This document shows, piece after piece, positions 2,133 through 62,185 of a stretch of DNA of 64,000 nt. Where the stretch lies: NCBI GenBank assembly GCA_001029735.1, contig CP011213.1, positions 591,929 to 655,928 on the forward strand. The letters run 5' to 3'. Position 1 is the stretch's first letter; each line of letters starts with the position of its first letter. Both the position numbers and the translations under genes were made by a program. The stretch comes from Berkelbacteria bacterium GW2011_GWE1_39_12. GTDB lineage: Bacteria > Patescibacteriota > UBA1384 > UBA12157. The notes under the pieces are model-generated. The model was not told the DNA's origin and did no database searches. It was given only the letters and a program-made list of their open reading frames with translations.

Positions 2133-4134
2133 TTTACCGATTTCAAATTTGTTAGGTGTCGGTCCTAAAATGGCCGAAAAATTAGAAAGGTTGGGGATAG
2201 AAACTATCCGCGATCTTCTTTTTTATTACCCTCGAACTTACGATGATTTTACAAATCCTGTGCCAATCAAAAGTTTAAGAATTGATGACGAAAAAATCAT
2301 TAAAGCCAAGATTATTAAAATAAGCGAGGCCCGAACGAACCGCCGGTGGATGAGCTTAATTAAAGCCAAATTGGCAGACGAAACTGGTGAAATTGAAGCC
2401 GTTTGGTTTAATCAATCCTTTTTATTAAATGTTTTAAAAGAAGGTAGTGAATTTTTGTTTTTAGGCAAAGTGCATTGGGATTTTAAAAATAAGAAGAAGA
2501 ATTTTACTGTTACTAGCTATGAAAAAGAAGCGAAAATACTACCGGTTTACGGTGAAACCGAAGGTTTAACCAGTAAATTTTTGCGTAAATTGATCGAACC
2601 TTTGCTCGAAAAATTTTCTATCGTTGACTATTTGCCTGACGAAATTAAAAAGGAGCAAAGCTTAATTGATTTAGCCAGCGCAGTTAAAAACATTCATTTC
2701 CCAGCTACGAATGATCAGATGCATGCGGCCAGACGGCGCATTGCTTTTGACGAATTGTTTTTCATTGCTTTAAAAATGCAAGAGGCTAAAAAAGAGCTGT
2801 CTGTTTCACGTGCGCCAAAAATAAAATTCGATGAAAATATTTTAAAAAATTTTGTGAATGACTTGCCGTATAAATTAACAAACGCACAAAGAAAAACGGC
2901 ATGGGAAATAGTCCAAGATTTAGAAAATAGTCGGCCGATGAATCGTTTATTGGAAGGCGATGTCGGTTCCGGCAAAACCGTAGTCGCTGCGATGGCGGTA
3001 TTAACTACGGTTAAGGCTGGCTTCCAAGCAGTTTGGTTGGCGCCAACAACGATTTTGGCTAATCAGCATTACCAAAATGTTTCAAAATTATTAAAAGATA
3101 TTAAAGTAGGTATTTGGACGGCCGGCAGTAAACTGGCAGATTTTAAAAACGATGATTTAATTATTGGTACCCACGCCTTGGTGCAAAAAGGTGTAAACTT
3201 TGATCGCTTAGCCTTGATTATTGTCGATGAGCAACATCGTTTTGGTGTAAAACAACGAGCCTTTTTGAAGGAGGGTGCCTTTAAAAAAAATGACACAGTC
3301 CCACACTTTCTTTCGATGACAGCCACGCCGATTCCGAGAACTTTAGCCCTAGCTTTTTATGGTGATTTAGATCTATCGATTATCAATGAAATGCCAGCGG
3401 GCCGCCAAAAAGTCATTACGAAAATTGTGCCTCCAAAAGAACGTAATCAAGCATATGATTTTATTAAAAACCAAGTTGAAGCTGGCCGACAAGTCTTTGT
3501 CATTTGTCCTTTAATCGACGAAAAGGTTTCATCAGATCGTTTATTGGACGTGGATAGAAAATCAGCGGTTAAGGAGTATGAAAAGCTTTCAAAAAAAATA
3601 TTTCCGCAGTTCAAGGTTGGTCTTTTACATGGCAAGATGAAGGTGTCGGAAAAAGACGAGGTGATGCAAAAATTCAAAAACAAAAAGATTGATATTTTAG
3701 TTTCCACAGCCGTAGTCGAAGTTGGCATCGATATTCCCAACGCTACTGTTATGATGATTGAAGATGCGGAGCGTTTCGGTTTAGCTCAACTTCATCAATT
3801 TAGAGGTCGTGTGGGTAGAGGCAAAGATCAGTCATATTGTTTAATTTTCTCCGAGAGCTGGTCGGATTCGACGAAAAAGCGCTTAAAAGCGATGATCACT
3901 TGCGACAATGGTTTTGACCTAGCAGAAATCGATTTGGATTTAAGGGGTCCAGGTGAATTCACGGGATTTTGTCAATCAGGTTTACCGGACTTGAAAATGG
4001 CCTCACTTTCAGATAGAATAATGATAGAAAAGGCCAAGGTGGCAGCAGAGAACGTGGTTAAAAAAGGCATCGAAAATTATCCAAAGCTATTGGAAAAATT
4101 TAAAGAATTTGCTATCACTAAGCATTTGGAATGA
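2122..4134 (+). CDS. recG: ATP-dependent DNA helicase RecG
   Basis: Walker A 'GDVGSGKT', the 'DEQHRFGV' motif, an N-terminal wedge/OB region and the 670 aa length all fit RecG. Confidence 0.85.
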   Translation: MNYDLPISNLLGVGPKMAEKLERLGIETIRDLLFYYPRTYDDFTNPVPIKSLRIDDEKIIKAKIIKISEARTNRRWMSLIKAKLADETGEIEAVWFNQSFLLNVLKEGSEFLFLGKVHWDFKNKKKNFTVTSYEKEAKILPVYGETEGLTSKFLRKLIEPLLEKFSIVDYLPDEIKKEQSLIDLASAVKNIHFPATNDQMHAARRRIAFDELFFIALKMQEAKKELSVSRAPKIKFDENILKNFVNDLPYKLTNAQRKTAWEIVQDLENSRPMNRLLEGDVGSGKTVVAAMAVLTTVKAGFQAVWLAPTTILANQHYQNVSKLLKDIKVGIWTAGSKLADFKNDDLIIGTHALVQKGVNFDRLALIIVDEQHRFGVKQRAFLKEGAFKKNDTVPHFLSMTATPIPRTLALAFYGDLDLSIINEMPAGRQKVITKIVPPKERNQAYDFIKNQVEAGRQVFVICPLIDEKVSSDRLLDVDRKSAVKEYEKLSKKIFPQFKVGLLHGKMKVSEKDEVMQKFKNKKIDILVSTAVVEVGIDIPNATVMMIEDAERFGLAQLHQFRGRVGRGKDQSYCLIFSESWSDSTKKRLKAMITCDNGFDLAEIDLDLRGPGEFTGFCQSGLPDLKMASLSDRIMIEKAKVAAENVVKKGIENYPKLLEKFKEFAITKHLE

Positions 4135-4565
4135 ATGAATTTGATAAGCTAATTTATCAATACAGATTTATTGTCGGTGGCGTTCTAATCGCCGTCATTT
4201 TGACCGGTTCCGGTCTTCTAGTCTGGGAAAAGATTGTTCAATCTCGTCAATCAAAAAACGAGGCGATGGAGTTGCTAGAAAAAGAAAATGAAGCTCTGCG
4301 CCAAGAGTTGAGTGGTCAAGCGAAAGTTGTGGCTGGATCCGAAGCTTCCGTTGTACAGGGTGAAAGCGACAAAATCAACATTAATACTGCGGCTTTGACT
4401 GATTTAGATAAAATTCCCAGTGTTGGTCCGGTAATTGCGCAAAGAATAATCGATTACAGAAATGAAAACGGCGCTTTTAAAACGATCGAAGATTTAAAAA
4501 AGGTCAAAGGCATTGGGGAAAAAACATTCGAAAAAATTTCAGGCTCAATAACAGCAGGAGAATAG
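4131..4565 (+). CDS. comEA: ComEA-like helix-hairpin-helix DNA-binding (competence) protein
   Basis: N-terminal TM helix followed by tandem HhH motifs at the C-terminus ('INTAALTDLDKIPSVGPVIAQRIIDYRNENGAFKTIEDLKKVKGIGEKTFEKI'). Confidence 0.75.
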   Translation: MNEFDKLIYQYRFIVGGVLIAVILTGSGLLVWEKIVQSRQSKNEAMELLEKENEALRQELSGQAKVVAGSEASVVQGESDKININTAALTDLDKIPSVGPVIAQRIIDYRNENGAFKTIEDLKKVKGIGEKTFEKISGSITAGE

Positions 4566-9783: not shown

Positions 9784-12555
9784 ATGAAATTATCTTTTCT
9801 CAAAAAAAACACAAGAAAAAAGAATGCTATCATTGCTGCTGGCTTTGTTTTGCTTGTTGCTGTAATTGCCATTTTTTTAATCTGGCTTGTCAAGAATAAA
9901 CCTCAAGCTTCGGATATAGTAGGTGATGTAGAAATTGCTGATTTTGTTAAAGCCCCTAAATATCCAAGCCACCTTTTGTACTCTGAGGATCAATCAAGAC
10001 TTTACACCTCGGATCAATTTGGGGTCCGAATTTTTGATATCGCCGATGAAGAAAATCCAATTGAAATTGGAGAGTATAGCAGTGCATCAGTGGTTCAGGA
10101 TATGCTGCTTGATCAGAACATGCTTTATGTCTTACTGACAAACAGAATCAAGGTTATAAACGTAGCTAATCCAGCAAGCCTTGTTCTTGTAAAGGAATTT
10201 ACATTTAGGCCATCGAGTAATATATACATGTCCACAAGCATGGATCTCTATCAAGGGAAGCTTTACATCGGTGATGATAACCCTGAGATTTGGGAAATAA
10301 ACGTTAATGATCCTTCCAATCCTATAGTTGAAAGATTAATTAATATTAAAACAGCTTTAAGTCGATATTCTAGGGATTTAGTTGTTAAAAAGTTTAATGG
10401 TAAGCCGTATATCTTTGTAGCAAATGATGCTGATGGTTTGAAAATCGTTGATTTAGAAACTGGCGAGCTAGTCATAGCTTTACCGGTTACAAGAATAGAC
10501 GGCGAAGCCGATTCAGCAAGGGCAATAAACTTTAATGGCAACTATTTATATTTAGGCGCAAGTAACAGCAATCTTCAGGTTATAGGTGGGTTCGAAAATC
10601 TTGGCACTCCGGAATTTAATCCTCAGGTTGTTGATCGCGCATTTCCCGAAAAGGCTTGGGGATTTTTGTCTCGAACAGTTTTGGTTAATAACCATTTGTA
10701 TGCCGTTAATTCCGATATTATTCCAACTGCTGGAGCATATGTGTTTGACGTGTCAAACCCCGCCGACCTTGTTTGGTTACCTGGGCCCGAATCAACTGGT
10801 AGTGGTTTTATTCCAAATCCAAACTTCCCAACTCAAGGCGTCTCAAGAGATTTGGTTTATACAAAAAATGGTTATCTAATTGTGAGTGATGACACAAACT
10901 TATTTGATGTTTTTAAACCCAATGAAAATCCTGGGAGTATCAGAACGAATAATTTTATTAAGCGAGCGCCAACTCTTCATGGTACTTATGATGTTTCGTT
11001 CTTGGAAAATAGAGGCATGGTTGCGGTTTCCCATACCGGTATCGACTTATTCGACGCTTCAAATCCTGAAAAACCTATCTATAAATCAAGTTATGGCCGA
11101 CAAAACGTTAATGTTTTACTTGTCCCGAATAGTGGAACAGGTGCGGCAACCACAAAAGGTAATTTGGTTTTCTTTTCAAAATCCGATCCAGACTCTCAAT
11201 TTGTCATTGCTGATGCAACCGATCTTAATCAACCTCAATATATTTCTAGTTTAGTCCTTGATCCGTCAGCAACTTTGAATAACGGATCTTGGAATGCGAA
11301 AGAATTATTAATTAAAGATAATTTATTGTTTCTTGCCGGAGGCTCTCAGGGGAATGTTGGTTTGTATACAATCGATATTACCGATATTGCAAATCCTGTT
11401 TTAAAAAGTTTTATTAAATTAGGACAATCACCTTGGCGAATTGCCGAATCAGGAGGATATGTTTATTATGGCGACTCTGGACAAGGCTTAATAACATTGG
11501 ATGTTAGCGATCCGGCCAATCCTAAAATAGTCACACCACAATATTTAGATGGTAATGGTCAGCCAATTGATACAAATAATCCGAATGTTTTAACCTACTC
11601 ACATTATTTAGTTTATACAAACTTTTATAATGGATTTTATATTTTTGATGTGGCTGATCATTTAAATCCGGTTTTTGTCACGCATTACCATGACGGTTAC
11701 ATGGGAGGCTGGGGTTATGATGTGGTTGGAAATTTGCTCTACTCTGGCGGTAACACCTCGGGTATGAATTTATGTGTTTATGACATCGAAAACCCTCTGA
11801 ACCCTAGAAGATTAACGTGTGGTGGGCGTACTGAGTTTTCTGAAGCAGAAACCAAATTAAAGGTATACAACGGTTTAGCATTTGCAACGGGTACTTTCCC
11901 TTATACTGCGTATCATGTGCGAATTATGCGTGTCCCGGTTTTGTTAAATTACGATTACACGATTAATATGACAGTATCTGACGATGATGAGAAGGATCAG
12001 ATCAAAACCACTTCGAATAAAGGTGAAATATTAGAATACAAAATAAATTATTCCAACACGGGTAATGCTCCTTTGACCAATATTACTATTTCAAGTAATG
12101 TGCCAACTTTGACTAATTACGATAGTGGGGGAGTGTTAGATCCTGAAAATAAAGTGGTAAATTTCTCGATCGATTCTCTTGCCCCGGGAATTTCAGGCAC
12201 AGTTTTCTTTAAAGTTAAAGCAAATTCGGATCTTGCAGATGGTAATTATGAAATAACAAATAGCAGTTCAATTTTGGCCAACGAGCTTTCTGAACTTCAG
12301 AGCAACGAAGTTATTTCTAATATTTTTATTAATACGCCAATCCCTCCGGTTATCCCTCCAGTTGCCCCTCCGGTTATCCCTCCAATTCCGCCGTCAAGTC
12401 CGACGCCAGACGAACCTTTATCACCCATTACGCCGATTATTGAGTTGATTGAGTCTGGAACAGGTATCACAGTCATAATTATTGGATCTCTCGCTATTGC
12501 CTCTCTGATTACTTTTTTATGGGTGAAAAGAAAGAAGCGAAATGTCATTAGCTAA
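9784..12555 (+). CDS. large cell-surface protein: N-terminal signal/TM anchor, multiple LVIVD-type beta-propeller repeats, DUF11-like repeat domain, proline-rich stalk, C-terminal TM anchor
   Basis: At least 7 repeats of the form '...Y(V/L)xx(G/D)xxGLxIxDVSNPxxP' (e.g. 'GGYVYYGDSGQGLITLDVSDPANPKIV'). The C-terminus carries 'PIPPVIPPVAPPVIPPIPPSSPTPDEP' followed by a hydrophobic helix and 'KRKKRNVIS'. Confidence 0.65.
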   Translation: MKLSFLKKNTRKKNAIIAAGFVLLVAVIAIFLIWLVKNKPQASDIVGDVEIADFVKAPKYPSHLLYSEDQSRLYTSDQFGVRIFDIADEENPIEIGEYSSASVVQDMLLDQNMLYVLLTNRIKVINVANPASLVLVKEFTFRPSSNIYMSTSMDLYQGKLYIGDDNPEIWEINVNDPSNPIVERLINIKTALSRYSRDLVVKKFNGKPYIFVANDADGLKIVDLETGELVIALPVTRIDGEADSARAINFNGNYLYLGASNSNLQVIGGFENLGTPEFNPQVVDRAFPEKAWGFLSRTVLVNNHLYAVNSDIIPTAGAYVFDVSNPADLVWLPGPESTGSGFIPNPNFPTQGVSRDLVYTKNGYLIVSDDTNLFDVFKPNENPGSIRTNNFIKRAPTLHGTYDVSFLENRGMVAVSHTGIDLFDASNPEKPIYKSSYGRQNVNVLLVPNSGTGAATTKGNLVFFSKSDPDSQFVIADATDLNQPQYISSLVLDPSATLNNGSWNAKELLIKDNLLFLAGGSQGNVGLYTIDITDIANPVLKSFIKLGQSPWRIAESGGYVYYGDSGQGLITLDVSDPANPKIVTPQYLDGNGQPIDTNNPNVLTYSHYLVYTNFYNGFYIFDVADHLNPVFVTHYHDGYMGGWGYDVVGNLLYSGGNTSGMNLCVYDIENPLNPRRLTCGGRTEFSEAETKLKVYNGLAFATGTFPYTAYHVRIMRVPVLLNYDYTINMTVSDDDEKDQIKTTSNKGEILEYKINYSNTGNAPLTNITISSNVPTLTNYDSGGVLDPENKVVNFSIDSLAPGISGTVFFKVKANSDLADGNYEITNSSSILANELSELQSNEVISNIFINTPIPPVIPPVAPPVIPPIPPSSPTPDEPLSPITPIIELIESGTGITVIIIGSLAIASLITFLWVKRKKRNVIS

Positions 12556-14053
12556 AGTTTATTCAACCTCCGTATTGGGGCTCGATGCGATGCCGATTGA
12601 AGTTGAAGTTGATATTTCAAATGGCCTACCGTCATTAACGATTGTTGGACTTCCCGATAAAGCAATTGAAGAATCAAAAGAAAGAGTACGGTCAGCTATT
12701 AAAAATTCTGGTGCAAACTTTCCGGTTAAAAAACTAACGATCAATTTAGCGCCGGCAGATTTAAAAAAAGAAGGTCCGGCATATGATTTGCCGATTGCTA
12801 TCGGTATTCTTACTGCCGATGAGCAAATCCCAAAAATTAGTGAAAAAGTTTTATTTGTTGGTGAATTGGCATTAGATGGAAATCTACGCCATATCAATGG
12901 AATTTTGCCAACCGTTTTAATGGCTAAGGAAAAAGGATATCAAAAGGTCTATTTACCGGATGTGAACAAAGATGAAGCGATCATGGTCAAAGGAATCGAA
13001 ATCATTCCGGTAAAAAATTTAAAAGAATTAATATATCATTTAAAAAATGAAAAAGCTATACCAAGTTTTTTTAAGAAATTCCAAATAATAACTGATAGAA
13101 AATACGAAAATGACATGACCTTTGTTAAGGGTCAGGAAAATGCTAAACGGGCATTGGAAATAGCGGCGGCCGGGGGACACAATATTTTGATGTCTGGCCC
13201 CCCAGGATCGGGAAAAACATTACTAGCCAAAACTATTCCATCGATTTTACCTGAACTCAATGAAGACGAAATTTTAGAAGTCACAAAAATTTATTCCGTT
13301 GCAGGGTTATTGCCTCATGACGAACCTTTAATATCGATCCGACCTTTCAGGTCACCGCATCACACTACTTCGAATGTTGCCTTAGTCGGTGGCGGCACTT
13401 TTCCGCGACCGGGTGAAATTACTTTATCGCATCGCGGCGTGTTATTTTTAGATGAATTTGCTGAATTTCCGCGAAGTGTTTTAGAAGCACTACGCCAACC
13501 TTTGGAAGATGGAGTTATAACCGTTTCTAGGGCGCAGGGTTCAATAACATATCCAGCCAAGTTTATTTTAGTTGCCGCACAAAATCCTTGTCCCTGCGGT
13601 TATTTAGGTGATGAATCTAAAAATTGTATATGCACCCCGACGCAAATTATTCGTTATCAAAAAAGAGTTTCAGGTCCGTTATTAGATCGCATCGATTTGC
13701 ACGTGGAAGTGCCGCGAATTAAATACGAAAAGCTGGCTTCTGAAAGTGTCGCGGAAAAATCCATAGAAATAAGAAAACGCGTCGAAATAGCGCGAAAAGT
13801 ACAAAATAAGAGAGCTAAAAAAACTAATTCCGAATTTAGTCCAAGAGATATTAAAGCTTATTGCGGCTTAGACGAAGAGGGGAAAAATTTATTGAAGCAT
13901 GCAGTCAATAACTTAAATCTTTCAGCCCGTCAATATTCGAGAATTTTAAAAGTTTCTCGAACAATTGCCGATCTATCTGTAAGTGATGATATTAAAAAAG
14001 AACATATTGCTGAGAGCTTGCAATATAGACCTAAAGAGCAAAATATATATTAA
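12542..14053 (+). CDS. comM: YifB/ComM-family Mg-chelatase-like AAA+ ATPase
   Basis: N-terminal Lon-like domain 'VLGLDAMPIEVEVDISNGLPSLTIVGLPDKAIEESKERVRSAI', Walker A 'GPPGSGKT', a Cys-rich insertion, and about 500 aa length. Confidence 0.8.
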   Translation: MSLAKVYSTSVLGLDAMPIEVEVDISNGLPSLTIVGLPDKAIEESKERVRSAIKNSGANFPVKKLTINLAPADLKKEGPAYDLPIAIGILTADEQIPKISEKVLFVGELALDGNLRHINGILPTVLMAKEKGYQKVYLPDVNKDEAIMVKGIEIIPVKNLKELIYHLKNEKAIPSFFKKFQIITDRKYENDMTFVKGQENAKRALEIAAAGGHNILMSGPPGSGKTLLAKTIPSILPELNEDEILEVTKIYSVAGLLPHDEPLISIRPFRSPHHTTSNVALVGGGTFPRPGEITLSHRGVLFLDEFAEFPRSVLEALRQPLEDGVITVSRAQGSITYPAKFILVAAQNPCPCGYLGDESKNCICTPTQIIRYQKRVSGPLLDRIDLHVEVPRIKYEKLASESVAEKSIEIRKRVEIARKVQNKRAKKTNSEFSPRDIKAYCGLDEEGKNLLKHAVNNLNLSARQYSRILKVSRTIADLSVSDDIKKEHIAESLQYRPKEQNIY

Positions 14054-14437: not shown

Positions 14438-14619
14438 TTATTCACTCCTGTTATGACTTCATTGTACATCAGCATTGTATCTGAAACAATATTATTTTCA
14501 AGAGGCTGAAAGCCTAATTGGAAACAAACTTGATTTATTTCAATAGATTGATTACCATGCGGATTGCCGTCTTGGACGAAACCTTGTTGGAAACAGAATT
14601 ATCTATTAAGAAGTTTATC

Positions 14620-14648
14620 TTTACAAGGTCTATTCTTTTTGCTATCAT
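14620..14648 (+). promoter_or_regulatory. candidate sigma70-type promoter for the tRNA-Gly/tRNA-Cys cluster
   Basis: TTTACA, a 17-nt spacer, then TATCAT, about 10 nt upstream of the first tRNA-like hairpin. Confidence 0.3.
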
Positions 14649-14668
14649 ATAAGGGAACTTCTTAATTA

Positions 14669-14757
14669 GTGAGAGTAGTTCAGCTTATCTGAACTACCTG
14701 CAAAGAATACGCGAGAGTAGTTTCAGCTGTTCCTGAACTATCTCGCAAAAACAATTA
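14669..14757 (+). repeat. two tandem hairpin-forming partial copies of the 5' end of tRNA-Gly(GCC)
   Basis: GTGAGAGTAGTTCAG..CTGAACTAC and GCGAGAGTAGTTTCAG..CTGAACTATCTCGC both share the GCGAGAGTAGTTCA 5' end of the adjacent tRNA. Confidence 0.6.
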
Positions 14758-14832
14758 GCGAGAGTAGTTCATCGGTAGAACGTCTCCTTGCCAAGGAGAA
14801 GGTAGCGGGTTCAATTCCCGTCTCTCGCTCCA
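14758..14832 (+). tRNA. tRNA-Gly (anticodon GCC), CCA encoded
   Basis: Acceptor GCGAGAG pairs with CTCTCGC; D-stem GTTC/GAAC; anticodon stem TCTCC/GGAGA with loop TTGCCAA; T-arm GCGGGTTCAATTCCCGT. Confidence 0.85.
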
Positions 14833-14884
14833 ATGTCTTTCCGGTAATAATAATAACAGGTCAGCGTTATATAAGTTTCAGTAC

Positions 14885-14958
14885 GGCTTGATGACCGAGC
14901 GGCCAGGTAGCGGTCTGCAAAACCGCGCACGCCGGTTCGACTCCGGCTCAAGCCTCCA
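14885..14958 (+). tRNA. tRNA-Cys (anticodon GCA), CCA encoded
   Basis: Acceptor GGCTTGA pairs with TCAAGCC; anticodon stem GCGGT/ACCGC with loop CTGCAAA; T-arm GCCGGTTCGACTCCGGC. Confidence 0.75.
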
Positions 14959-15077
14959 ATAATAAGATTTGTTTTCTAAAAAAAAGAATAAAAAAGCAAA
15001 TCATTAAGATCTGCACAAAACTTCTGGTGAAAAATATAGCAAATTGCAAATTTTCGCAGAAATTTTTGAGGAAAATT

Positions 15078-15299
15078 ATGACAACAACGTTTAATTATAT
15101 ACAAATTGGGATCGCCTTACTTTTATTGGTTAGTATCTTGATGCAGCATCGTGGTACTGGCTTAGGTGGGGCTTTCGGTGGTGAAGGTAATGTTTACAGA
15201 TCTCGTCGTGGCGCTGAGAAGTTTCTTTTCTATGCTACGATCGTTTTGGCCGTCGCTTTTGTTGCTTTGGCTGTTGTCAATATTCTGCTTCAAAAATAA
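15078..15299 (+). CDS. secG: preprotein translocase subunit SecG
   Basis: 'LLLLVSILMQHRGTGLGGAFGG' is the SecG signature. The ATG at 15078 has a GAGGAAAAT RBS; the longer ORF starting at 15027 has none. Confidence 0.75.
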   Translation: MTTTFNYIQIGIALLLLVSILMQHRGTGLGGAFGGEGNVYRSRRGAEKFLFYATIVLAVAFVALAVVNILLQK

Positions 15300-16697: not shown

Positions 16698-16783
16698 GCC
16701 CGGATGGCGGAATGGTAGACGCGCTGGCTTCAGGTGCCAGTGATCGCAAGATCGTGGAGGTTCGACTCCTCTTTCGGGCACCA
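16698..16783 (+). tRNA. tRNA-Leu (anticodon CAG), class II, CCA encoded
   Basis: Acceptor GCCCGGA pairs with TTCGGGC (one G-U pair); anticodon stem CTGGC/GCCAG with loop TTCAGGT; long variable arm; T-arm GGAGGTTCGACTCCTCT. Confidence 0.85.
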
Positions 16784-16833
16784 AAAATTTGATTAATTTG
16801 TAATTGTTAGTTAATATGGCCCTAGAATAAAAA

Positions 16834-16855
16834 GTCAAGCAATGCTTGGCTTTTT
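16834..16855 (+). terminator. putative intrinsic terminator downstream of tRNA-Leu(CAG)
   Basis: GTCAAGC-AAT-GCTTGGC hairpin followed by TTTTT. It overlaps the first ATG (16842) of the purH ORF, which argues for a downstream start. Confidence 0.4.
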
Positions 16856-16886
16856 ACGTATCTCAAAACTTGAGGAGGAATGGGTG

Positions 16887-18581
16887 ATGATTGCGGTAAG
16901 AGCAAAGAAAAAGAGAGATCCGTACAACATGTCTCTGCAGAGTCTACTGAAGTTCAAAAAGATCGCTCTTGTCTCGGTTTACGACAAGACTAATCTGGCC
17001 GAACGAGTCAGACGTCTGACCAAACAAGGCTACGGCATCCTTAGTTCTGGCGGAACAGCCAAGATGCTACGGGAAAACAAGATTCGCGTCTGTGATGTGG
17101 CAACACTTGTCGGTGGCGGCGCGATTTTAGGCCACAAGGTGGTAACCCTGTCGCGTGAAGTCCATGCGGGTCTATTGGCTGCCGATTGTGAAATCGAGGT
17201 ACTAGAACAGCTTGGCATTCCGCGTATTGATCTGGTAGCGGTTGATCTATATCCTCTTGAGGAAGAAATCGCCAAACCTGATTGCACCCGTAAGAGCGTC
17301 ATCGAGAAAACAGACATCGGCGGACCAACTATGCTTTCTTCGGCAGCCAAAGGTGGACGGATCGTTATTAGTATTCCCGAAGACTGGGAGCCGACGTTGA
17401 CTTGGATCGAATCGGGTTGCCCGGATTTCGACGAAACTGTCAATGCTCAGCGAGCCAAAGCCGACTATGTTGTCGCCAAGTATCGATTGCTTTCGGCGAA
17501 TTATCATAGCGGCGGCATCTACGCCGGCGTGATTGGGCGCAAGGTCAGAGACTTAGCCTACGGCGAAAATCGTGACCAGTCTCCGTCAGCGCTCTACGAA
17601 GAAGATCCGACTGATTCCCTTGGTATGGGTAAATTTGATGTCTTAACAGGTGATCCCAGTCACATTTCTGTCGCCGACGGAGACCGTGCGCTCGGAGTGA
17701 TGTGCGCGGCGGCCGATGCCTTCCGTCTCAACTGCAATGCCGTGCCTTTCATCGCCGTTGCCTGTAAGCACGGCGCTCCATGTGGCATCGGCGTGTCCTT
17801 TGAAACAAGGAACACCGCTCTCGAGAGAGCGCTGATGGGAGATTCGATCGCAGTAATGGGAGCGGAGGTAATGACCAACTTCGCGATCGATGAAGATCTC
17901 GGGAGACTGCTTTACGAAGTGCCAGAGTCACTTCGTGCTCAAGTTGGCTGTAAGTACTGGGGTATCGATGTACTTTACGCTCCTGCAGTTGACGATGCTA
18001 CCATTGATCTCCTCGGCAAAAAAGAGCGTCGACGCATCTTGGTCAATCCGGCGCTTATCTATCCATTCAGCTCCAAGCAGGAGCTGATGGGAAGACCGGT
18101 CCGTGGAGGGTTCCTCAGTCAGAAAGCATACCACTTCATCCTCGATCTTCACGATCTTCATTTACCGCTAACGGCGGGAATGAATGACGATCAAAAGATT
18201 GACGCCATTATCGCTTGGGCTGCATGTTGGCGATCTGTCTCCAATACCGTTGCTTTGGCAAATGATGGCACGCTTATCGGTCTTGGTTGCGGCCAGCAAG
18301 ATCGCATTGCCTGCGTTGAGCTATGCCTGAATCGGGCTAAACGCTCTGGTCATAACACCAATGGCTCGATGTTTGCCTCCGACGCTTTCTTCCCGTTTGC
18401 CAAGAGGAAACGTGAAGAAGATCCGTTAGAAGGACCGGAAATTCTTATCCAGGCTGGCTGCGCCGGCGGCATAGTACCCCATGATGGTAAGAACATAGAA
18501 GAGGTAAGTGCGCTTTTTGATGAGCATAAACTGCTAGTAGGATATCTTCCGTCGATTCACCGTGGCTTCTTCGGCCACTAA
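16887..18581 (+). CDS. purH: bifunctional AICAR transformylase / IMP cyclohydrolase (PurH), GC-rich
   Basis: MGS-like domain 'ALVSVYDKTNLAERVRRLTKQGYGILSSGGTAKMLRENKIRVCDVATLVGG...DLVAVDLYPL'. AICARFT motifs 'LAYGENRDQ', 'ASDAFFPF' and C-terminal 'HRGFFGH'. Start chosen at the ATG preceded by GAGGAGG; 16842 and 16929 are alternatives. Confidence 0.8.
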   Translation: MIAVRAKKKRDPYNMSLQSLLKFKKIALVSVYDKTNLAERVRRLTKQGYGILSSGGTAKMLRENKIRVCDVATLVGGGAILGHKVVTLSREVHAGLLAADCEIEVLEQLGIPRIDLVAVDLYPLEEEIAKPDCTRKSVIEKTDIGGPTMLSSAAKGGRIVISIPEDWEPTLTWIESGCPDFDETVNAQRAKADYVVAKYRLLSANYHSGGIYAGVIGRKVRDLAYGENRDQSPSALYEEDPTDSLGMGKFDVLTGDPSHISVADGDRALGVMCAAADAFRLNCNAVPFIAVACKHGAPCGIGVSFETRNTALERALMGDSIAVMGAEVMTNFAIDEDLGRLLYEVPESLRAQVGCKYWGIDVLYAPAVDDATIDLLGKKERRRILVNPALIYPFSSKQELMGRPVRGGFLSQKAYHFILDLHDLHLPLTAGMNDDQKIDAIIAWAACWRSVSNTVALANDGTLIGLGCGQQDRIACVELCLNRAKRSGHNTNGSMFASDAFFPFAKRKREEDPLEGPEILIQAGCAGGIVPHDGKNIEEVSALFDEHKLLVGYLPSIHRGFFGH

Positions 18582-18606
18582 GATCGAAGATCTCAAACTT
18601 ATTGTC

Positions 18607-18632
18607 AGGCTGGATTTTTTCCAGCCTTTTTA
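18607..18632 (+). terminator. rho-independent terminator after purH
   Basis: GGCTGGA-TTTTTT-CCAGCC hairpin followed by TTTTT. Confidence 0.65.
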
Positions 18633-18651
18633 AATACAAAGACATAAAGCC

Positions 18652-18680
18652 TTGAAGTAATACCTGTTAAATGTTACAAT
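18652..18680 (+). promoter_or_regulatory. sigma70-like promoter upstream of purB
   Basis: TTGAAG, a 17-nt spacer, then TACAAT. A GGGGAGG RBS lies before the ATG at 18729. Confidence 0.45.
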
Positions 18681-18728
18681 CCAAGCGTCTGAAATAGGGG
18701 ACAATATGTTTGGGGAGGTTCGTTAACA

Positions 18729-20096
18729 ATGTTAAGTAGGTATTCATCAAAACAAATGCAAGCCCTTTGGGGCGAGCGTTCAAAGTGGTCGCTGATGCTC
18801 CTGGTTGAGTTAGCCTACATAAAGGCGAAAGCTCAACTTGCGTATCTGCCAATGAGTCTCTATGAGCAGTTTCGCAAACACTCAAAGTTCACGCTGAAAC
18901 GGATCGATGAAATTGAAAACGGTCCGGAAGGTACCGGACATGATGTCTTGGCGTTTGTGAAAACGGTCCAAGAATCGCTGAGGAAAGCGGGGGTTGAACG
19001 TGATGGCGAGTTCCATAAGGGCCTGTCTTCATACAATGCGCAAGACCCCGCGAATATGCTCCGTCTGCGAAAAGCTAATGGGTTAATAATCGAAGCGTTG
19101 TACAAGCTGTACAACAGTTTGAAGAGCATGTCTTTGAAACATAAATGGACTCTGATGCTGGCCTATACTCATGTCCAGGACGCAGAACCGACGACTTTCG
19201 GGCACTTGCTGGCAAACTATGCTTTTCAAATCCGACAGAGGATTCACAAGCTTGAGCGAATCATGGAGGAAGATCTCTGTTGGGGCAATATGGGAGGTAC
19301 AGTTGGCACCTATGCCGGAATTGATATAAAGGTTGCCGAGTTGGCGCTGAGTGAGCTTGGTCTTAAGCCTCGTATTGACACTCAAATCATTTCTCGTGAT
19401 AATCATGCGGAGTTCATGTGTGAATTGGCGATCATCGCCGGTGTCATTGAAGAGATGGCGCGGACTTTCCACATCAGGATGCACAGTGCTATCCATGAAT
19501 TGGAAGAGCCGAAGAAGAAAGGTTATCGTGGCTCCTCGGCAATGTCACATAAGAGAAATCCGAACCTGACCGAACAATTGTTTGGCCTAGCTCGACTGAT
19601 TCGTGCCGCAGCTATGGCAGCTCTGGAGAATATTGAAACGCTGGATTATAGGGACATTGCACAGTCGATCGTCGAGCGTCACATTTTCCCAGATGCTACA
19701 TCTTTGGTTCATCATGCGGTGACGAAGATGACCAAGCTGGTCGAAGGTTTGGTCGTATGTACAGACAGAATGAAGGAACGCGTCGAAGTGGATTCACTCG
19801 GCGTTTGGGCTACGCAGCAGGTAAGAATAGCACTGATGGATGCTGGCGTCTCGTATGACGAAGCATATCTTTACACACAAGCCTGTGCATTTCAGGCTGT
19901 GTCTGAGAAGCGCCACATACTGGACGTCATGTGTGTCAAAGAAGTCTCGGAGACCAACAAAAACACCGCCGATGGTGTCTTGGGTGTAGATAAGTTAAAG
20001 AGCTGTTTCGACGCCAAGAGTTATATCGAATCCGGCATTGAATACAGTTTCACCAAGGCGTTTCCTGAGCTAACAGAAATAAGCGCAGCGGTGTAG
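18729..20096 (+). CDS. purB: adenylosuccinate lyase (PurB), GC-rich
   Basis: Fumarate-lyase signature 'GSSAMSHKRNPNLTEQLFGLARL' and an N-terminus 'YSSKQMQALWGERSKWSLMLLVELAYIKA' typical of PurB, at 455 aa. Confidence 0.8.
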   Translation: MLSRYSSKQMQALWGERSKWSLMLLVELAYIKAKAQLAYLPMSLYEQFRKHSKFTLKRIDEIENGPEGTGHDVLAFVKTVQESLRKAGVERDGEFHKGLSSYNAQDPANMLRLRKANGLIIEALYKLYNSLKSMSLKHKWTLMLAYTHVQDAEPTTFGHLLANYAFQIRQRIHKLERIMEEDLCWGNMGGTVGTYAGIDIKVAELALSELGLKPRIDTQIISRDNHAEFMCELAIIAGVIEEMARTFHIRMHSAIHELEEPKKKGYRGSSAMSHKRNPNLTEQLFGLARLIRAAAMAALENIETLDYRDIAQSIVERHIFPDATSLVHHAVTKMTKLVEGLVVCTDRMKERVEVDSLGVWATQQVRIALMDAGVSYDEAYLYTQACAFQAVSEKRHILDVMCVKEVSETNKNTADGVLGVDKLKSCFDAKSYIESGIEYSFTKAFPELTEISAAV

Positions 20097-20129
20097 AACA
20101 AAGGCGAACAAAATACGAAAGAAAAAGGA

Positions 20130-21470
20130 GTGGAAACGGAAATGATCAAATACGAAAAGGGCGAAATGATCAGCGAAGGGAAGACCAAACAGGTCTTCAA
20201 GGTGGTGGGACATCCCGGTTTGGTAATCATAAGGGCTAAGGACGACATCACTGCTTTCGATCAGGCAAAGTACACGAAGCAATTTCCTGGCAAAGGCATC
20301 TGCTCTACTACGATTACCTGCCGTGTTTTTGAACTGCTAAAGGCAGCCGGAATACCGGTGGGGTATCGTGAACAGCTTTCGGAGCGGGAATTCCTGGCCG
20401 AGGAAGGCACGATGATTCCGCTTGAAGTAATTGGGCGGCGCTGTGTTGCACCGGAAAGCAGTTGCCTGAAGCGGACACCTCAGATCGATCCGAAATCTAT
20501 TGACCCCGTGATCCGTCTGCCGAGGCTTTCTGTGGAGTTCGACCTCAAGACGACGGGAGGCGGCTTCATAGATCGATTCGGTGATCGGGTGGAGCTTGGA
20601 TTGAACGCTGAGCGCAAAGAGGAAGATCCACTGATCGAAGATCCTTATTCTCAAGAATGGCAGTTGCTGCACAGCAAAAAGCCCGCTTGGGAGGATGGGG
20701 CTCGGCTTGGATCCGTTCAGCGTGACCAGGTCATTTCGGACATAGCATTGATCGACAAAATGGATGATCTGACACGCCGGCTGTTCCTGGTTCTCGAAGG
20801 TATGTGGAAAATGCTCGGCTACCACATCCTCGACATCAAAGTCGAATACGGCTTCAACGCTCGTGGCGAATTGATGTTGTTTGATGTTATCGATGCCGAC
20901 TCCTGGAGACTGCGCGACCGGAAATGGGAAGACTTCAGCAAGCAGTCTTTCCGAGACGGTCAGGACCTGGATCGAGTTGCCCGCAAGTTCTGGATTGTCG
21001 CTGACAAGATCCAGCAGTTTGCCATTCCGGATCAGACTCTTGTGGTTTGGCGCGGTTCCGATAAGGATAGCTGGCCTTTGGCGCCAGAATCATATGAGGA
21101 CGTGCCGAATCTTAAGATCGAAATGGTCACGCTTTCAGGGCACAAGCAGACTGGGATGTGCCTCGACAAGCTCAACGATCTGCAGCGCGACTATCCTTCA
21201 GGGGTAATTCTTGCGGCAGTTGGCATGAGTAACGGGCTTGGCCCTGTCTTGGCCGCCCACTCTGTCTGGCCGGTGATTGGAATGCCAGCAACGGCGAAGG
21301 AATTTCCTGAAGACGTCTGGAGCAGTCTTCGGACACCGTCGCAGACCCCAATGCTTGTTTGTCTAGAGAAAAACGCTGTTAATGCAGCACGGAATCTCTT
21401 GGCACTCCAAAACCCCGTACTGTATATGAAACAGCAGCGAGCGGTCGAAGAACTTGATCGCTGTGCATAG
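20130..21470 (+). CDS. fused SAICAR synthetase (PurC, N-terminal) and AIR carboxylase/PurE-like (C-terminal) protein; PAICS-like domain order
   Basis: N-terminus 'EGKTKQVFKVVGHPGLVIIRAKDDITAFDQAKYTKQFPGKGICSTTITCRVFELLKAAGIP' is a PurC signature. C-terminus 'LVVWRGSDKDSW...SGHK...GVILAAVGMSNGLGPVLAAHSVWPVIGMP...NAVNAARNLLAL' is a PurE fold. Confidence 0.7.
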   Translation: METEMIKYEKGEMISEGKTKQVFKVVGHPGLVIIRAKDDITAFDQAKYTKQFPGKGICSTTITCRVFELLKAAGIPVGYREQLSEREFLAEEGTMIPLEVIGRRCVAPESSCLKRTPQIDPKSIDPVIRLPRLSVEFDLKTTGGGFIDRFGDRVELGLNAERKEEDPLIEDPYSQEWQLLHSKKPAWEDGARLGSVQRDQVISDIALIDKMDDLTRRLFLVLEGMWKMLGYHILDIKVEYGFNARGELMLFDVIDADSWRLRDRKWEDFSKQSFRDGQDLDRVARKFWIVADKIQQFAIPDQTLVVWRGSDKDSWPLAPESYEDVPNLKIEMVTLSGHKQTGMCLDKLNDLQRDYPSGVILAAVGMSNGLGPVLAAHSVWPVIGMPATAKEFPEDVWSSLRTPSQTPMLVCLEKNAVNAARNLLALQNPVLYMKQQRAVEELDRCA

Positions 21471-21486
21471 AGTATGTTTCACGTAG

Positions 21487-21520
21487 GAGTCAGCCTTTTA
21501 GGCCGGCTCCTTTTTAATTA
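21487..21520 (+). terminator. putative terminator after the purC-purE fusion gene
   Basis: GC-rich imperfect hairpin GGAGTCAGCC..GGCCGGCTCC followed by TTTTT. Confidence 0.4.
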
Positions 21521-21631
21521 CTTTACATTTCTAATAGATCGGCTTATCCACAGCCTTTTGCTGTATTTTTTTTTAATTTATGTGTTACTTTGAGGTGGGA
21601 GTACTTTTTATAAACTAATAGGGACCGGAGG

Positions 21632-23092
21632 TTGGAAATGAGTGGAGAACTACATGAAGAATGCGGAGTATTTGGGATTAGCGCTGAAGGCGAAGACGTT
21701 GCTAGATTAACCCATGCAGCCATACTTTGGTTGCAACATCGAGGGCAGGAATCGGCCGGTATTGCTACATCAGATGGTCAAGAAATTAGGTTGCAGAAAC
21801 AAGATGGTAGAGTTGACCATTTTACAGAAGAACAAATGGTTATGCTAACCGGTAAGAATCCGTTGGCCATGATGGCTATTGGTCATAATAGATACTCTAA
21901 CACTGGTGGAAATATCTATGAAAACTTTCAACCATTTGTGGTTCAAACTTCATTAACTCCACTAGCTTTGGCTCACAATGGGAATTTGGTTAACCCTGAT
22001 GCTATTGCAAAAAAGTTGAAAGATCTAGGTGTTACGCCTCAGGGCTCATCTGATAGCGAATTGATTGCTTTGTTAATTGCAGCGGAAAGTCAGAATGCAT
22101 CGAGTATTGAAAAAGCAATCGAGCTTACCATAAAACAATTGGTTGGTGCTTATTCATTAGTGATAATGACTAAGGATCAATTGATTGGCGTTCGTGATCC
22201 GTGGGGCATCAGACCGCTTAGCTTGGGTCGACTTAATGATCATCATTATCTTTTGGCTTCAGAAACCTGTGCAATAGAGGCTGTAGGTGGTAGTTTATTC
22301 AGAGATCTGGAACCCGGAGAAATGGTTGTAATTGACAAAGGCGCTGAGCCAAGATTTTCTCAAATATTGCCAAAACAATGCAAAAAACTCTGTATTTTCG
22401 AGTTTATATATTTTGCTTCTCCAGGAAGCATTATGTATAATCGTTTGTTGCAAACTGCCAGACGTCATATGGGAGAAATGCTCTGGAAAGAATTTCCTCT
22501 CAAAATAGATAATCCTGACGAATGGGTAGTTGGCGGCGTGCCAAACACAGGTCTTCCAGCAGCTCAAGGATTTGCCGAAGCCTCTGGACTTGAGTTTCGT
22601 AATATTATAGTCAAAAATCCCTATGTTTTTCGAACGTTCATCCAACCAGATCAACGACTCCGAAAACTTGGAGTTAAGGCCAAGCTATTGCCTCTTCCTC
22701 GCGAAGTCATGAAGAAAAAAGTGATTTTGGTTGAGGATTCGATTGTTCGAGGTAATACCTCGGGTGAGATTATTGAAATGCTTCGTAAAGCTGGTGCCAA
22801 AGAAGTGCACATGATGATTTCTTCGCCGCCATATATACACCGCTGTTACATGGGTGTAGATACTCAATATAGTAGCGAGTTGATTGCTGCCCAAAAGTCG
22901 ATCGAAGAGATCCGACAGTTTATCAAGGCTGATTCATTAAGCTACCTCTCGTTGCCTGGACTCATTGCTGCAATCAATAAGGAAAAATACGAGGAACCAA
23001 TCCCGCCAGGATCTTTCTGCGACGCCTGTTTCACAGGTAAGTATCCTTTCCCCATCCCTCAGGAAGAGGGAAGATTCGAGCTGAGCGCTTGA
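21632..23092 (+). CDS. purF: amidophosphoribosyltransferase (glutamine-PRPP amidotransferase, PurF)
   Basis: A propeptide precedes the catalytic Cys ('EECGVFGI'); 'IGHNRYSNTGG'; PRTase motif 'VILVEDSIVRGNTS'; C-terminal Cys pattern. Its composition is closer to the host than the three genes upstream. Confidence 0.85.
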   Translation: MEMSGELHEECGVFGISAEGEDVARLTHAAILWLQHRGQESAGIATSDGQEIRLQKQDGRVDHFTEEQMVMLTGKNPLAMMAIGHNRYSNTGGNIYENFQPFVVQTSLTPLALAHNGNLVNPDAIAKKLKDLGVTPQGSSDSELIALLIAAESQNASSIEKAIELTIKQLVGAYSLVIMTKDQLIGVRDPWGIRPLSLGRLNDHHYLLASETCAIEAVGGSLFRDLEPGEMVVIDKGAEPRFSQILPKQCKKLCIFEFIYFASPGSIMYNRLLQTARRHMGEMLWKEFPLKIDNPDEWVVGGVPNTGLPAAQGFAEASGLEFRNIIVKNPYVFRTFIQPDQRLRKLGVKAKLLPLPREVMKKKVILVEDSIVRGNTSGEIIEMLRKAGAKEVHMMISSPPYIHRCYMGVDTQYSSELIAAQKSIEEIRQFIKADSLSYLSLPGLIAAINKEKYEEPIPPGSFCDACFTGKYPFPIPQEEGRFELSA

Positions 23093-23129: not shown

Positions 23130-23705
23130 TTAAAGTTCTTCCCACTCGATTGGTTTTTCGGGGAATGCGGCCATGTAGGCATAGCCGCGAAAGTTTCGAT
23201 ATATCTTTCCGACATTTAGAGTTCTTAAAAAGTCGACCATTTCAGAGGTGACATCTTTGGGTTTTTTGTCAGTTTCGCCCGCAAATTCGATTTCCACAAA
23301 GTCACCCAGACCTTTAACCTTGTCGATGCTTATTTCATATTTTTTATATTTATAAATGATTCGGGTTTTATCGACTTGGCAAATCTTTTTATGTTCTAAT
23401 GCCTCAAAAATTCTTTCTAAGTTTTTATAATTTTCAATTTTAGTTTCATATTCATCACAATGATGGCTACGTCCGGTTTCGTCATATTTCCAATTCTTAT
23501 AGTTAATGGAATCTCCCTTTTCTGAACTACGAAGTCTGAGCCATTCGTTCACTTTTTTCTTCGCCAAAAAATTCCTATGTTTAGGTGTAAAATATTTATC
23601 GATTTGTCTTTGTGTGCCAGTCAGTTTTGCATTTTCTTTCAAAAAATCGATCAATGGTTTGGTTTTTTGTAATTTAACTTGAATTTCGATTTCAATATTT
23701 TTCAT
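23130..23705 (-). CDS. CYTH-domain protein (CyaB/thiamine-triphosphatase-like)
   Basis: The N-terminal 'EIEIQVKL' ExExK-type motif and acidic/basic strand motifs fit the CYTH triphosphate-tunnel fold, at 191 aa. Confidence 0.55.
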   Translation of the reverse strand: MKNIEIEIQVKLQKTKPLIDFLKENAKLTGTQRQIDKYFTPKHRNFLAKKKVNEWLRLRSSEKGDSINYKNWKYDETGRSHHCDEYETKIENYKNLERIFEALEHKKICQVDKTRIIYKYKKYEISIDKVKGLGDFVEIEFAGETDKKPKDVTSEMVDFLRTLNVGKIYRNFRGYAYMAAFPEKPIEWEEL

Positions 23706-23772: not shown

Positions 23773-23858
23773 GCCCGAGTGCTGGAATGGTAGACAGGCT
23801 ACCTTGAGGTGGTAGTGTCCGCAAGGGCGTGGAGGTTCGACTCCTCTCTCGGGCACCA
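23773..23858 (+). tRNA. tRNA-Leu (anticodon GAG), class II, CCA encoded
   Basis: Acceptor GCCCGAG pairs with CTCGGGC; anticodon stem CTACC/GGTAG with loop TTGAGGT; long variable arm; T-arm GGAGGTTCGACTCCTCT. Confidence 0.85.
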
Positions 23859-60016: not shown

Positions 60017-60030
60017 TAAATATACAAAAA

Positions 60031-60052
60031 AGGCCCGAAAGGGTCTTTTTTG
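60031..60052 (+). terminator. intrinsic terminator, possibly bidirectional
   Basis: AGGCCC-GAAA-GGGTCT hairpin flanked by an A-tract upstream and TTTTTT downstream. It lies between convergent genes. Confidence 0.6.
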
Positions 60053-60112
60053 ATGTGACTCATACGTTATCAGTCTAATGTTTGATTAAATGTCTTGTAT
60101 ACCCTAATGCAA

Positions 60113-60733: not shown

Positions 60734-60792
60734 ACTGTGATTATATCAAAAAATAACCTCAAGTGTTATCTTCTTTGTTGGCGGTCATATGC

Positions 60793-60892: not shown

Positions 60893-60973
60893 CTAATTGT
60901 AAATGATGTTTGAATTATTATGAGGAGAAATAATCATTCCCAAATTAGTTCCTACGGGAAATTATGTGACCGA

Positions 60974-62154: not shown

Positions 62155-62185
62155 GTACACAAATACAATCTATTCAATTTTACTT

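Follow-up and report, generated by a model that had tools for sequence, protein, structure and literature searches.

A purine biosynthesis block of foreign composition in a probably repeatedly replaced slot beside tRNA-Leu(CAG) of a Berkelbacteria genome

In the genome of Berkelbacteria bacterium GW2011_GWE1_39_12 a block of three purine biosynthesis genes lies beside a tRNA-Leu gene and differs strongly in composition from its surroundings. The stretch of DNA analysed here, called the window, comprises 64 kb of contig CP011213.1, and all coordinates refer to it. The organism is a Candidate Phyla Radiation (CPR) bacterium, as an earlier note made from the DNA letters had supposed, and the features described in that note were found at, or very near, the positions it gave. 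The block measures approximately 4.7 kb (about 16867-21548) and consists of purH, purB and a purC-purE fusion (purCE). On its left side it adjoins tRNA-Leu(CAG) (16698..16783, plus strand; ARAGORN, Rfam tRNA 52 bits), the left anchor of a variable slot: the tRNA gene ends at 16783 and the foreign composition starts at about 16900. On its right side the block is followed by purF.

The first gene, purH (16887..18581, plus strand), codes for 5-aminoimidazole-4-carboxamide ribonucleotide (AICAR) transformylase/inosine monophosphate (IMP) cyclohydrolase. It carries the Pfam domains AICARFT_IMPCHas (PF01808) and MGS (PF02142), matches PurH in the PDB at 1e-45 and has a GC content of 0.51, with 0.52 at third codon positions (GC3). 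Its longest open reading frame (ORF) begins at 16842. The ATG at 16887 is the probable true start, as it stands after GGAGGA (16874-16879) and leads to a protein of 564 amino acids equal to AKM82466. Downstream of purH there is an intrinsic terminator (18607..18632, plus strand), composed of a hairpin (18607-18627) with an 8-bp stem and 5 G-C pairs and a subsequent T-run. It is followed by the promoter-like sequence TTGAAG-17-TACAAT with an upstream TG (18652..18680, plus strand; 9/12). This terminator, this promoter and tRNA-Leu(CAG) had all been reported before and were found again, the promoter as a consensus match only. The second gene, purB (18729..20096, plus strand; GC 0.48, GC3 0.53), encodes an adenylosuccinate lyase of the Thermotoga/Bacillus type (Pfam Lyase_1 and ADSL_C; PDB 1c3u at 2e-73). 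The third, purCE (20130..21470, plus strand; GC 0.53, GC3 0.59), is a PAICS-type fusion with the Pfam domains SAICAR_synt (PF01259) and AIRC (PF00731). Each gene of the block had been credited with promoter or terminator signals of its own, which is true for the terminator of purH and the promoter-like site of purB. However, purB and purCE are separated by 33 nt without a terminator, and they are probably co-transcribed. A further intrinsic terminator past purCE (21485..21511, plus strand), with the hairpin GGAGUCAGCC...GGCCGGCUCC followed by UUUUU, forms the right end of the foreign block. The right anchor of the slot is purF (amidophosphoribosyltransferase, plus strand; PDB B. subtilis PurF at 7e-108), which extends over 21638..23092 with 21638 as the probable start of an ORF that is open from 21632.

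The compositional analysis used the window itself as the host reference, with its 52 other credible ORFs. In 1-kb windows the GC content was 0.48-0.53 inside the block (17 to 21 kb) versus 0.28-0.42 across the remaining window. At a resolution of 200 nt the rise extends from about 16900 to about 21400, so that it starts approximately 100 nt past tRNA-Leu(CAG) and stops at the terminator behind purCE. The GC3 values of purH, purB and purCE were 0.519, 0.533 and 0.588 (z = 5.5, 5.8 and 7.3), while the other 52 ORFs had a mean of 0.306 (standard deviation 0.039, maximum 0.378) and the genes of SecA, MreB, S1 and AlaRS lay at about 0.29-0.33. Similar results were obtained for the Karlin codon bias relative to the host, which amounted to 0.46-0.57 in the block genes and 0.20 +/- 0.04 in host genes (z = 6.5-9.2), and for the dinucleotide distance delta*, which was 127 for the block compared with 41 +/- 15 and a maximum of 83 in 51 equally long host windows. 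The composition-normalised tetranucleotide usage of the block correlated with that of the host at 0.63, and host segments of the same size reached 0.75-0.91. Moreover, the GC content of purCE at first and second codon positions was 0.494, while a regression over loci where purCE looks native gives 0.427 as the value of a native gene of this genome (z = 2.6). The observed value implies a former host GC3 of approximately 0.62, matching the gene's own value of 0.59. Since the non-synonymous composition of purCE is foreign as well, the anomaly goes beyond codon choice, which speaks against selection at the codon level alone. At every level tested the block has a foreign composition. The sharp departure in GC content that the earlier note had described was thereby confirmed, with the block as an outlier against the window in GC, GC3, codon bias, delta* and tetranucleotide usage, and the host-like composition it had ascribed to purF was found as well (GC3 0.351, codon-bias z = 0.8). 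Proteins identical to those of the block are encoded in the curated, closed 915-kb genome of this groundwater bacterium, and again in an independent third-party annotation (TPA) assembly as well as on an ENA contig of 341 kb that crosses both junctions. As both junctions are spanned and the proteins recur in independent assemblies, an assembly chimera is very unlikely.

According to Pfam and PDB matches, PurF, PurE, PurC, PurB and PurH are present, that is, steps 1 and 6-10 of the purine pathway; purD, purN, purT, purL and purM (steps 2-5) were not found within the 64-kb window. In the product of purCE, PF01259 covers residues 14-277 and PF00731 residues 309-435 of one polypeptide, and its best sequence matches in the PDB are insect and human PAICS. 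The PurE domain scored 47 bits when compared with PAICS but no more than 24 bits with any PurE of class I, and its motifs SGHK and GMSNGLGP align with SAHK and GRSNGLGP of PAICS. The active-site loops SxHK and SNGLGP belong to class II PurE, those of class I being SAHR and AAHLxG. An AlphaFold2 model of the fusion (pLDDT 84, pTM 0.87) had the octameric human PAICS 6yb8_A as its top Foldseek match (E = 1e-30, TM 0.60/0.63). Judged from sequence and model, the fusion is of the PAICS type, with a predicted succinylaminoimidazole carboxamide ribonucleotide (SAICAR) synthetase and a class II aminoimidazole ribonucleotide (AIR) carboxylase. It shares with the animal enzymes (2h31, 6yb8, 4ja0) the N-terminal SAICAR synthetase, the C-terminal PurE, the class II motifs and the best match in both sequence and fold. 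Unlike them it is bacterial, only 24-28% identical, part of a large CPR-wide family and known here from sequence and model. No purK-like ATP-grasp gene adjoins the fusion in the Pfam search. The cargo is therefore predicted to encode the conversion of AIR via carboxyaminoimidazole ribonucleotide, SAICAR, AICAR and formyl-AICAR to IMP without PurK. Among bacteria, the KEGG orthologue of PAICS, K01587, has been described only for a Rhodoplanes and for the present genome (PMC12455805), an assignment that agrees with the distribution of the fusion in our scan of species-representative genomes.

Four other contigs, labelled L002, L096, L097 and L131, possess the same frame ChlI(ComM-like)-tRNA-Gly-tRNA-Cys-SecG-SBP_bac_5-tRNA-Leu(CAG)...tRNA-Leu(GAG). 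The host tree derived from pairwise identities is ((L002, L096), window), and L097 and L131 are more distant. For ChlI/SBP5/purF they amount to 95/90/87% between L002 and L096, to 84-85/67-70/68-69% between the window and either of these two, and to 71-73/54-57/49-50% for L097. The contig L131 lacks purF, and its identity with the window is 70% for ChlI and 48% for SBP5. The slot between the two tRNA-Leu genes contains purH-purB-purCE-purF-CYTH in the window and purM-(MobA-like nucleoside triphosphate (NTP) transferase)-purH'-purB'-purCE-purF in L002, where the GC3 is 0.57-0.62 versus 0.27-0.33 in the flanks. In L096 there is a small ORF of host composition and then purF, in L097 a gene for an HI0933-like flavoprotein on the other strand and then purF, and in L131 purB of the window's type only. 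Accordingly, the slot has five different states in five genomes, with a presence/absence polymorphism at the site, as L096 and L097 keep the frame without purH, purB and purCE. The comparison with relatives that the earlier note had recommended thus showed tRNA-Leu(CAG) followed by purF without the three genes in a sister genome (L096) and in an outgroup (L097), with one unrelated gene in each gap. The identity of purF follows the host phylogeny (L002 69%, L096 68%, L097 49%), and the gene is kept in the cassette-free genomes. The far boundary of the variable region is tRNA-Leu(GAG) (23773..23858, plus strand), which has kept its position in L002, L096, L097 and L131 and whose 3' end differs from that of tRNA-Leu(CAG) in 1/25 nt. 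Between purF and this tRNA the window has a CYTH-domain gene of the triphosphate tunnel metalloenzyme family (23130-23705, minus strand) with host-like composition. It is absent there in L002 and L096 and represents a further variable piece.

The junctions of the block can be located nearly to the base. The tRNA-Leu(CAG) of the window is almost identical to the copy in L096, and the similarity to L096 stops at the 3' end of the tRNA. Just past it lies the promoter-like element TTGATT-N17-TAATAT (16789..16817, plus strand), which agrees with the consensus at 8/12 positions and is under the threshold of our scan. Its counterparts in the alignment are TTGATA-N17-TAAAAT of L002 and TTGATT-N17-TAAAAT of L131; the three genomes with pur cargo at this site thus have the element, and L096 and L097 lack it. 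The element may act as a promoter. It is followed by a leader hairpin of 13 bp with A-run and T-run flanks, AAAAAGTCAAGCA-ATG-CTTGGCTTTTT (16828..16856, plus strand), and the RNA fold of 16784-16890 has -28.1 kcal/mol with z = -3.6. This hairpin could be either a terminator of the tRNA or an attenuator of the operon. An Rfam E-value scan from 14 to 25 kb yielded tRNAs only and no riboswitch or leader RNA. Among 129 loci, the leader 19-mer GCTTGGCTTTTTACGTATC is confined to the window (with L001 as its copy) and L002, where it sits within a run of about 25 nt that is identical in the alignment of the two. We also considered the shared leader as the end of a mobile element. As it occurs in only those two genomes, with the promoter-like part also in L131, an old operon promoter fits at least as well. 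On the right side, homology with L002 and L096 upstream of purF restarts at CCACAGCC (21548), just past the terminator of purCE; the alignment places the right breakpoint at the conserved host motif CCACAGCCTTTTGCTGTA (21548..21566, plus strand). An equivalent of the hairpin past purCE exists in L002 with compensatory changes. A 17-nt likeness to a tRNA-Leu anticodon arm at 21586-21602 (family D9) was rejected as it was no better than chance repeats and gave no Rfam tRNA at E < 1.

Compared with the near-identical copies of the window and of its close sister L096, the tRNA-Leu(CAG) of L002 (region 4261-4526) deviates in its D-stem, anticodon stem and variable arm. At 157 bp downstream of this divergent gene, 23 nt repeat a tRNA 3' end exactly. 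The tRNA-Leu(CAG) of L002 has been replaced by incoming DNA, with the 23 nt as a remnant of the old copy, so that foreign DNA has entered at the tRNA.

The comparison of the window with L002 indicates a non-vertical history of the cargo. Proteins of the flanks are 67-85% identical between the two, whereas PurH reaches 39%, PurB 28% and PurCE 59%; for PurH against the copy in the same position of L002 the range is 37-39%. In neighbour-joining trees the PurB proteins of the window and L002 fall into the two deepest PurB clades of the CPR and the PurH proteins into different clades, and both PurB types and both PurH types are widespread in other CPR. PurH and PurB of the window group with other CPR lineages (L088, L092, L003) and not with L002. 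The earlier note had named the same synteny and composition in a relative as an observation that would speak against acquisition. Formally L002 presents both, yet with PurB at 28% and PurH at 39% its cargo is non-orthologous. At 4-fold degenerate sites the flanking genes of the window and L002 are 0.31 identical with 0.28 expected from composition, which means that they are saturated. Consequently, the ancestral third positions have been turned over fully, and given the mutational bias of the host an inherited island should sit near a GC3 of 0.30. In several AT-rich CPR the GC3 of purCE is 0.21-0.35 and equals the background, so that there is no general constraint for a GC-rich purCE. Taken together, synonymous saturation and the lack of a GC constraint suggest that the cargo of the window and of L002 arrived well after their split or has been replaced since.

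The closest homologues of the cargo are found within the CPR. For purCE we obtained 1205 homologues at E < 1e-10, the best of which besides itself was 57% identical, and every named one belongs to Patescibacteria; in the scan of species-representative genomes the fusion occurs at 45-51% identity in many CPR classes. The best match of PurH has 65% identity, and all named matches are Patescibacteria. For PurB the best match has 64%, the named ones are Patescibacteria down to 42%, and non-CPR bacteria appear from 39% downward. Non-CPR homologues of PurCE, PurH and PurB are thus present only at or below 40% identity. The expectation that the best hits would lie in another phylum was not borne out, as the named homologues of all three proteins are Patescibacteria down to approximately 42%. 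The nearest relatives of PurH (65% and 55%) are encoded on the CPR contigs L088 and L092, which have 48-49% GC and pur genes near the local background, and whose GC content equals that of the block. Judged by these contigs, the donor would have been of a GC-richer CPR lineage with about 48-50% GC and a GC3 of approximately 0.6. Genomic islands are common in Patescibacteria, and most of their horizontal gene transfer takes place within the phylum (PMC12455944). A donor search by tetranucleotide signature was non-discriminating (0.79 for the island of L002, 0.82 and 0.78 for the Parcubacteria loci L048 and L060, and 0.77 for an alphaproteobacterial locus), and the loci L048 and L060 still contained their own, unmasked pur genes in this comparison. 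A phage vector was not supported either, as an IMG/VR scan with the PurCE alignment returned only 2 loci (L094 and L095) at 40%. PAICS-type fusions at 37-40% were seen in Xanthobacteraceae (Pseudolabrys, Rhodoplanes), Verrucomicrobiota, Tepidisphaerales and Dependentiae (within L050-L087). Besides, several metagenome-assembled genomes labelled as Gammaproteobacteria or Bdellovibrionales carry copies of the fusion at 45-48% in AT-rich contexts and look like mislabelled CPR.

Further loci point to an exchange of single modules. Between L132 and L002 the protein of purCE is 76% identical, with 0.60 identity at 4-fold sites, while iPGM is 52% identical, with 0.36 at 4-fold sites versus 0.30 by chance. 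By this comparison purCE of L132 and L002 is far younger than iPGM, which we take as direct evidence of transfer. The locus L005 is collinear with the cassette of L002 at 77% nucleotide identity, with purH-purB cleanly missing. In L132 the purCE backbone is 87% identical at the nucleotide level to that of L005, and a 41-nt upstream element is 97.6% identical, with a purB of the window's type inserted between. Modules have thus been added, deleted and recombined. L005 comes from the same metagenome as the cassette-free L096 and might represent that organism with a relocated cassette; in a tblastn comparison (E <= 1e-5) its flank matched no protein of the window or of the eight related loci compared. 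A gene for a MobA-like NTP transferase (PF12804) stands tight to purM in L002 (5789-6541) and L005 (7045-7797), and the two copies are 82% identical. In L131 an ORF of 113 amino acids (17831-18172) contains a complete N-terminal domain of PurD (PF02844, E = 4e-41) that is followed by neither an ATP-grasp nor a C-terminal domain. It is a decayed purD, a sign that the purine pathway is eroding in this relative within Berkelbacteria.

In a survey of 65 loci, purCE had a higher GC3 than the contig background in 60 (60/65; sign test p = 5e-13). Among AT-rich hosts, it exceeded the background by more than 0.15 in 11/23, and in none was it more than 0.07 below. In addition to a small offset specific to the gene, this distribution points to a flow that runs mainly from GC-richer to AT-richer CPR.

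Based on these observations, the block may be regarded as the present occupant of a recombination-prone slot between tRNA-Leu(CAG) and the native purF, at the site of an old pur operon. The three genes, all of CPR type, would have evolved recently in a GC-richer CPR lineage and would have entered this genome of 37% GC horizontally, long after its split from the sampled relatives. The entry most probably occurred by DNA uptake and homologous or illegitimate recombination at conserved ends, the left one provided by the tRNA and the operon promoter and the right one by the region upstream of purF. According to this mechanism, xenologous displacement took place in situ and repeatedly, and not as an integrase-driven island. 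Its modules would be purM with the MobA-like NTP transferase, purH, the two types of purB and purCE, which were reshuffled, trimmed and deleted. The data show the anomaly in composition, the affinity to the CPR, the non-orthology with the cargo of L002, the presence/absence polymorphism, the shuffling of modules and the PAICS-type identity; from them we infer how recombination took place, the type of donor, the time of entry and any metabolic benefit. The replacement of the slot content by a pur cassette of a GC-richer CPR bacterium is in our opinion the best explanation, and a likely one. Horizontal acquisition, as proposed in the earlier note, is in line with the foreign composition, the adjacency to the tRNA and the incongruent trees. 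A single insertion is not, since the five states of the slot speak for repeated replacement. A more far-reaching interpretation, which we put forward tentatively as possible rather than probable, is that pur genes constitute a modular mobile cassette of the CPR that mainly moves from GC-richer and metabolically fuller to AT-rich and reduced lineages and repeatedly overwrites slots beside tRNA-Leu genes.

The adjacency to the tRNA also brings to mind a classical integrase island aimed at the 3' end of tRNA-Leu(CAG), which has since lost integrase and att site from the copy of the window. The sharp left boundary at the 3' end of the tRNA would be expected for such an island, and the exact 23-nt duplicate in L002 resembles an att scar. 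Nevertheless, this remnant lies upstream of the cassette of L002, which it does not enclose. When up to 3 mismatches were allowed, the tRNA 3' end matched only the three genuine tRNA-Leu genes of the window, and no att repeat bracketing the block was revealed. No integrase, recombinase or transposase domain was detected by Pfam in the ORFs from 9.8 to 31 kb, there is no mobility gene between 14 and 25 kb, and the viral contigs contained no vector. Moreover, the cargo varies module-wise on a common backbone, for which recombination is a better fit than a unit element, and we consider an integrase island quite unlikely. Unlikely, too, is an ancestral operon inherited vertically, whose high GC content was kept by selection or, at a recombination hotspot, by GC-biased gene conversion and whose relatives differ by loss and fast evolution. 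The window and L002 indeed agree in gene order, promoter-like element and leader hairpin, and the distant L131 has a purB of the window's type in the same slot with 64% identity compared with 48-70% in the flanks. The decayed purD of L131 would reflect erosion of such a pathway, and the small positive GC3 offset of purCE is seen in nearly all genomes. However, the PurB and PurH proteins of the window and L002 belong to different deep and widespread CPR clades, which speaks for displacement and not for fast evolution. In many AT-rich CPR purCE is at the GC3 of its host, here the composition is foreign also at the amino acid level, and the housekeeping genes of SecA, MreB, S1 and AlaRS have a low GC3. 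Besides, the boundaries are sharp, with the neighbouring purF and SBP5 untouched, unlike a gradient caused by gene conversion.

Two other explanations concern the source of the DNA. A gain across phyla from a GC-rich bacterium outside the CPR could be suspected from the PAICS-type fusions in the GC-rich Xanthobacteraceae, Verrucomicrobiota and Tepidisphaerales and from the fairly high tetranucleotide correlation of 0.77 with the alphaproteobacterial locus. We give it very little weight, as the non-CPR fusions have 37-40% identity versus 45-57% in hundreds of CPR proteins, named matches of PurH and PurB above approximately 42% are all from Patescibacteria, and the GC content of the block suits CPR of 48-50% GC and not genomes of 60-67%. 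Almost none is left for an assembly chimera or a binning contamination, which the abrupt change of composition in a metagenome-derived sequence might suggest. The same proteins are encoded in the closed genome, in the TPA assembly and in the ENA contig, which stems from another run and reaches over both junctions. In addition, L002 repeats the architecture in an unrelated study, and the junctions lie in intergenic DNA with conserved promoter, leader and terminators.

Several points weigh against a late replacement of the slot content. The small positive GC3 offset of purCE is near-universal and observed even in Alphaproteobacteria, and thus has a gene-specific component that is independent of horizontal transfer. 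No close donor has been sampled, as the cargo of the window shares no more than 65% identity with any relative, and at 4-fold sites cargo and relatives are nearly saturated (0.33-0.39 identical, 0.26-0.29 by chance). Therefore, the transfer is not datable, and its recency rests on the amelioration argument alone. The promoter-like element, which the window has in common with L002 and L131, and the leader hairpin, which it has in common with L002, are compatible with some components being old residents of the slot. The same applies to the identities of 59% for PurCE and of 64% for PurB of the window and L131, the flanks being 48-70% identical. All trees were built quickly by neighbour joining and carry no support values, the composition of the host was estimated on 64 kb and not on the whole genome, and we infer the recombination mechanism from the absence of mobility genes.

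Comparable processes have been observed in other systems. In mosaic operons single genes are replaced horizontally inside a conserved operon frame. Here, too, the frame of tRNA-Leu(CAG), promoter-like element and native purF is kept, the inner genes are distant homologues of the same function, and mobility genes are lacking. In contrast to mosaic operons, the strongly foreign composition is retained, the slot can be fully or partly emptied, and the exchange pool is apparently confined to the CPR with a direction from GC-rich to AT-rich. Capsule and O-antigen loci switch by homologous recombination in conserved flanking genes. They likewise have a fixed slot with conserved bounds and divergent cassettes of atypical GC content that are traded among lineages, whereas the cargo described here is a segment of a central biosynthetic pathway without evidence of diversifying selection. 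With the tRNA-associated genomic islands of Patescibacteria the block has atypical GC and codon usage, tRNA adjacency, polymorphism and metabolic cargo in common (PMC12455944). It differs in the absence of an integrase and flanking direct repeats, in its size of 4.7 kb and in a content of three core biosynthetic genes, and the paper makes no mention of purine cassettes. In the literature on CPR nucleotide auxotrophy and transfer within the CPR that our searches retrieved, this locus is undescribed apart from one passing mention of the PAICS orthologue of the genome. While the process as such is known, a CPR-confined modular purine cassette with five resolved states of one slot is new.

In the usual description CPR bacteria cannot make nucleotides, and the view of them as obligate symbionts builds on this dependence. 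The later half of the purine pathway would instead be a trait that has been gained, swapped and lost in one CPR lineage and that is drawn from a pool within the radiation. If the interpretation as a mobile cassette is true, the nucleotide auxotrophy of episymbionts would be reversible at the population level and not fixed by genome reduction. Five allelic states with breakpoints known nearly to the base make the slot suitable for studying the exchange of core genes in tiny genomes without obvious mobile elements. The directional flow is testable at scale, since purCE is markedly GC-rich in half of the AT-rich CPR hosts, with the reverse seen in none. Moreover, the PAICS-type fusion, which is known mainly from animals, appears as the standard form in a large part of the CPR.

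Some further observations were made at the locus and its relatives. The codon CTG accounts for 28% of the Leu codons in the block compared with 5% in host genes, and the block adjoins the gene of the CTG decoder tRNA-Leu(CAG). A functional link between the CTG-rich cargo and this tRNA is a possibility. Other pur genes are also located near tRNA-Leu genes, as the cassette of L005 lies by tRNA-Leu(CAA) and the purD remnant of L131 approximately 670 bp past tRNA-Leu(TAA). Such a location could be a coincidence, an integration preference or a functional link. In L097 a weak LAGLIDADG-like ORF (14481-15146, E = 2.6e-4) lies directly past purF and overlaps the start of tRNA-Leu(GAG) (15111-15197).

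Elsewhere in the window, RecG, a ComEA-like HHH_3 protein and a ComM-like ATPase of the Mg-chelatase family are encoded at 2122-4565 and 12542-14053. By their predicted identity these genes are consistent with natural transformation, for which they are no evidence. A protein of 923 amino acids with LVIVD repeats, DUF11 and beta-propeller signatures (9784-12555) probably represents one of the large surface proteins that are typical of CPR episymbionts. Over 60 kb nearly all genes lie on the plus strand and the GC skew has a positive sign, while the skew is negative at 60-62 kb and the strand switches to minus with the genes at 60113-60733 and 60974-61831 and tRNA-Asp at 62077-62154. The region 60000-62200 may be a replication strand-switch point such as the terminus.

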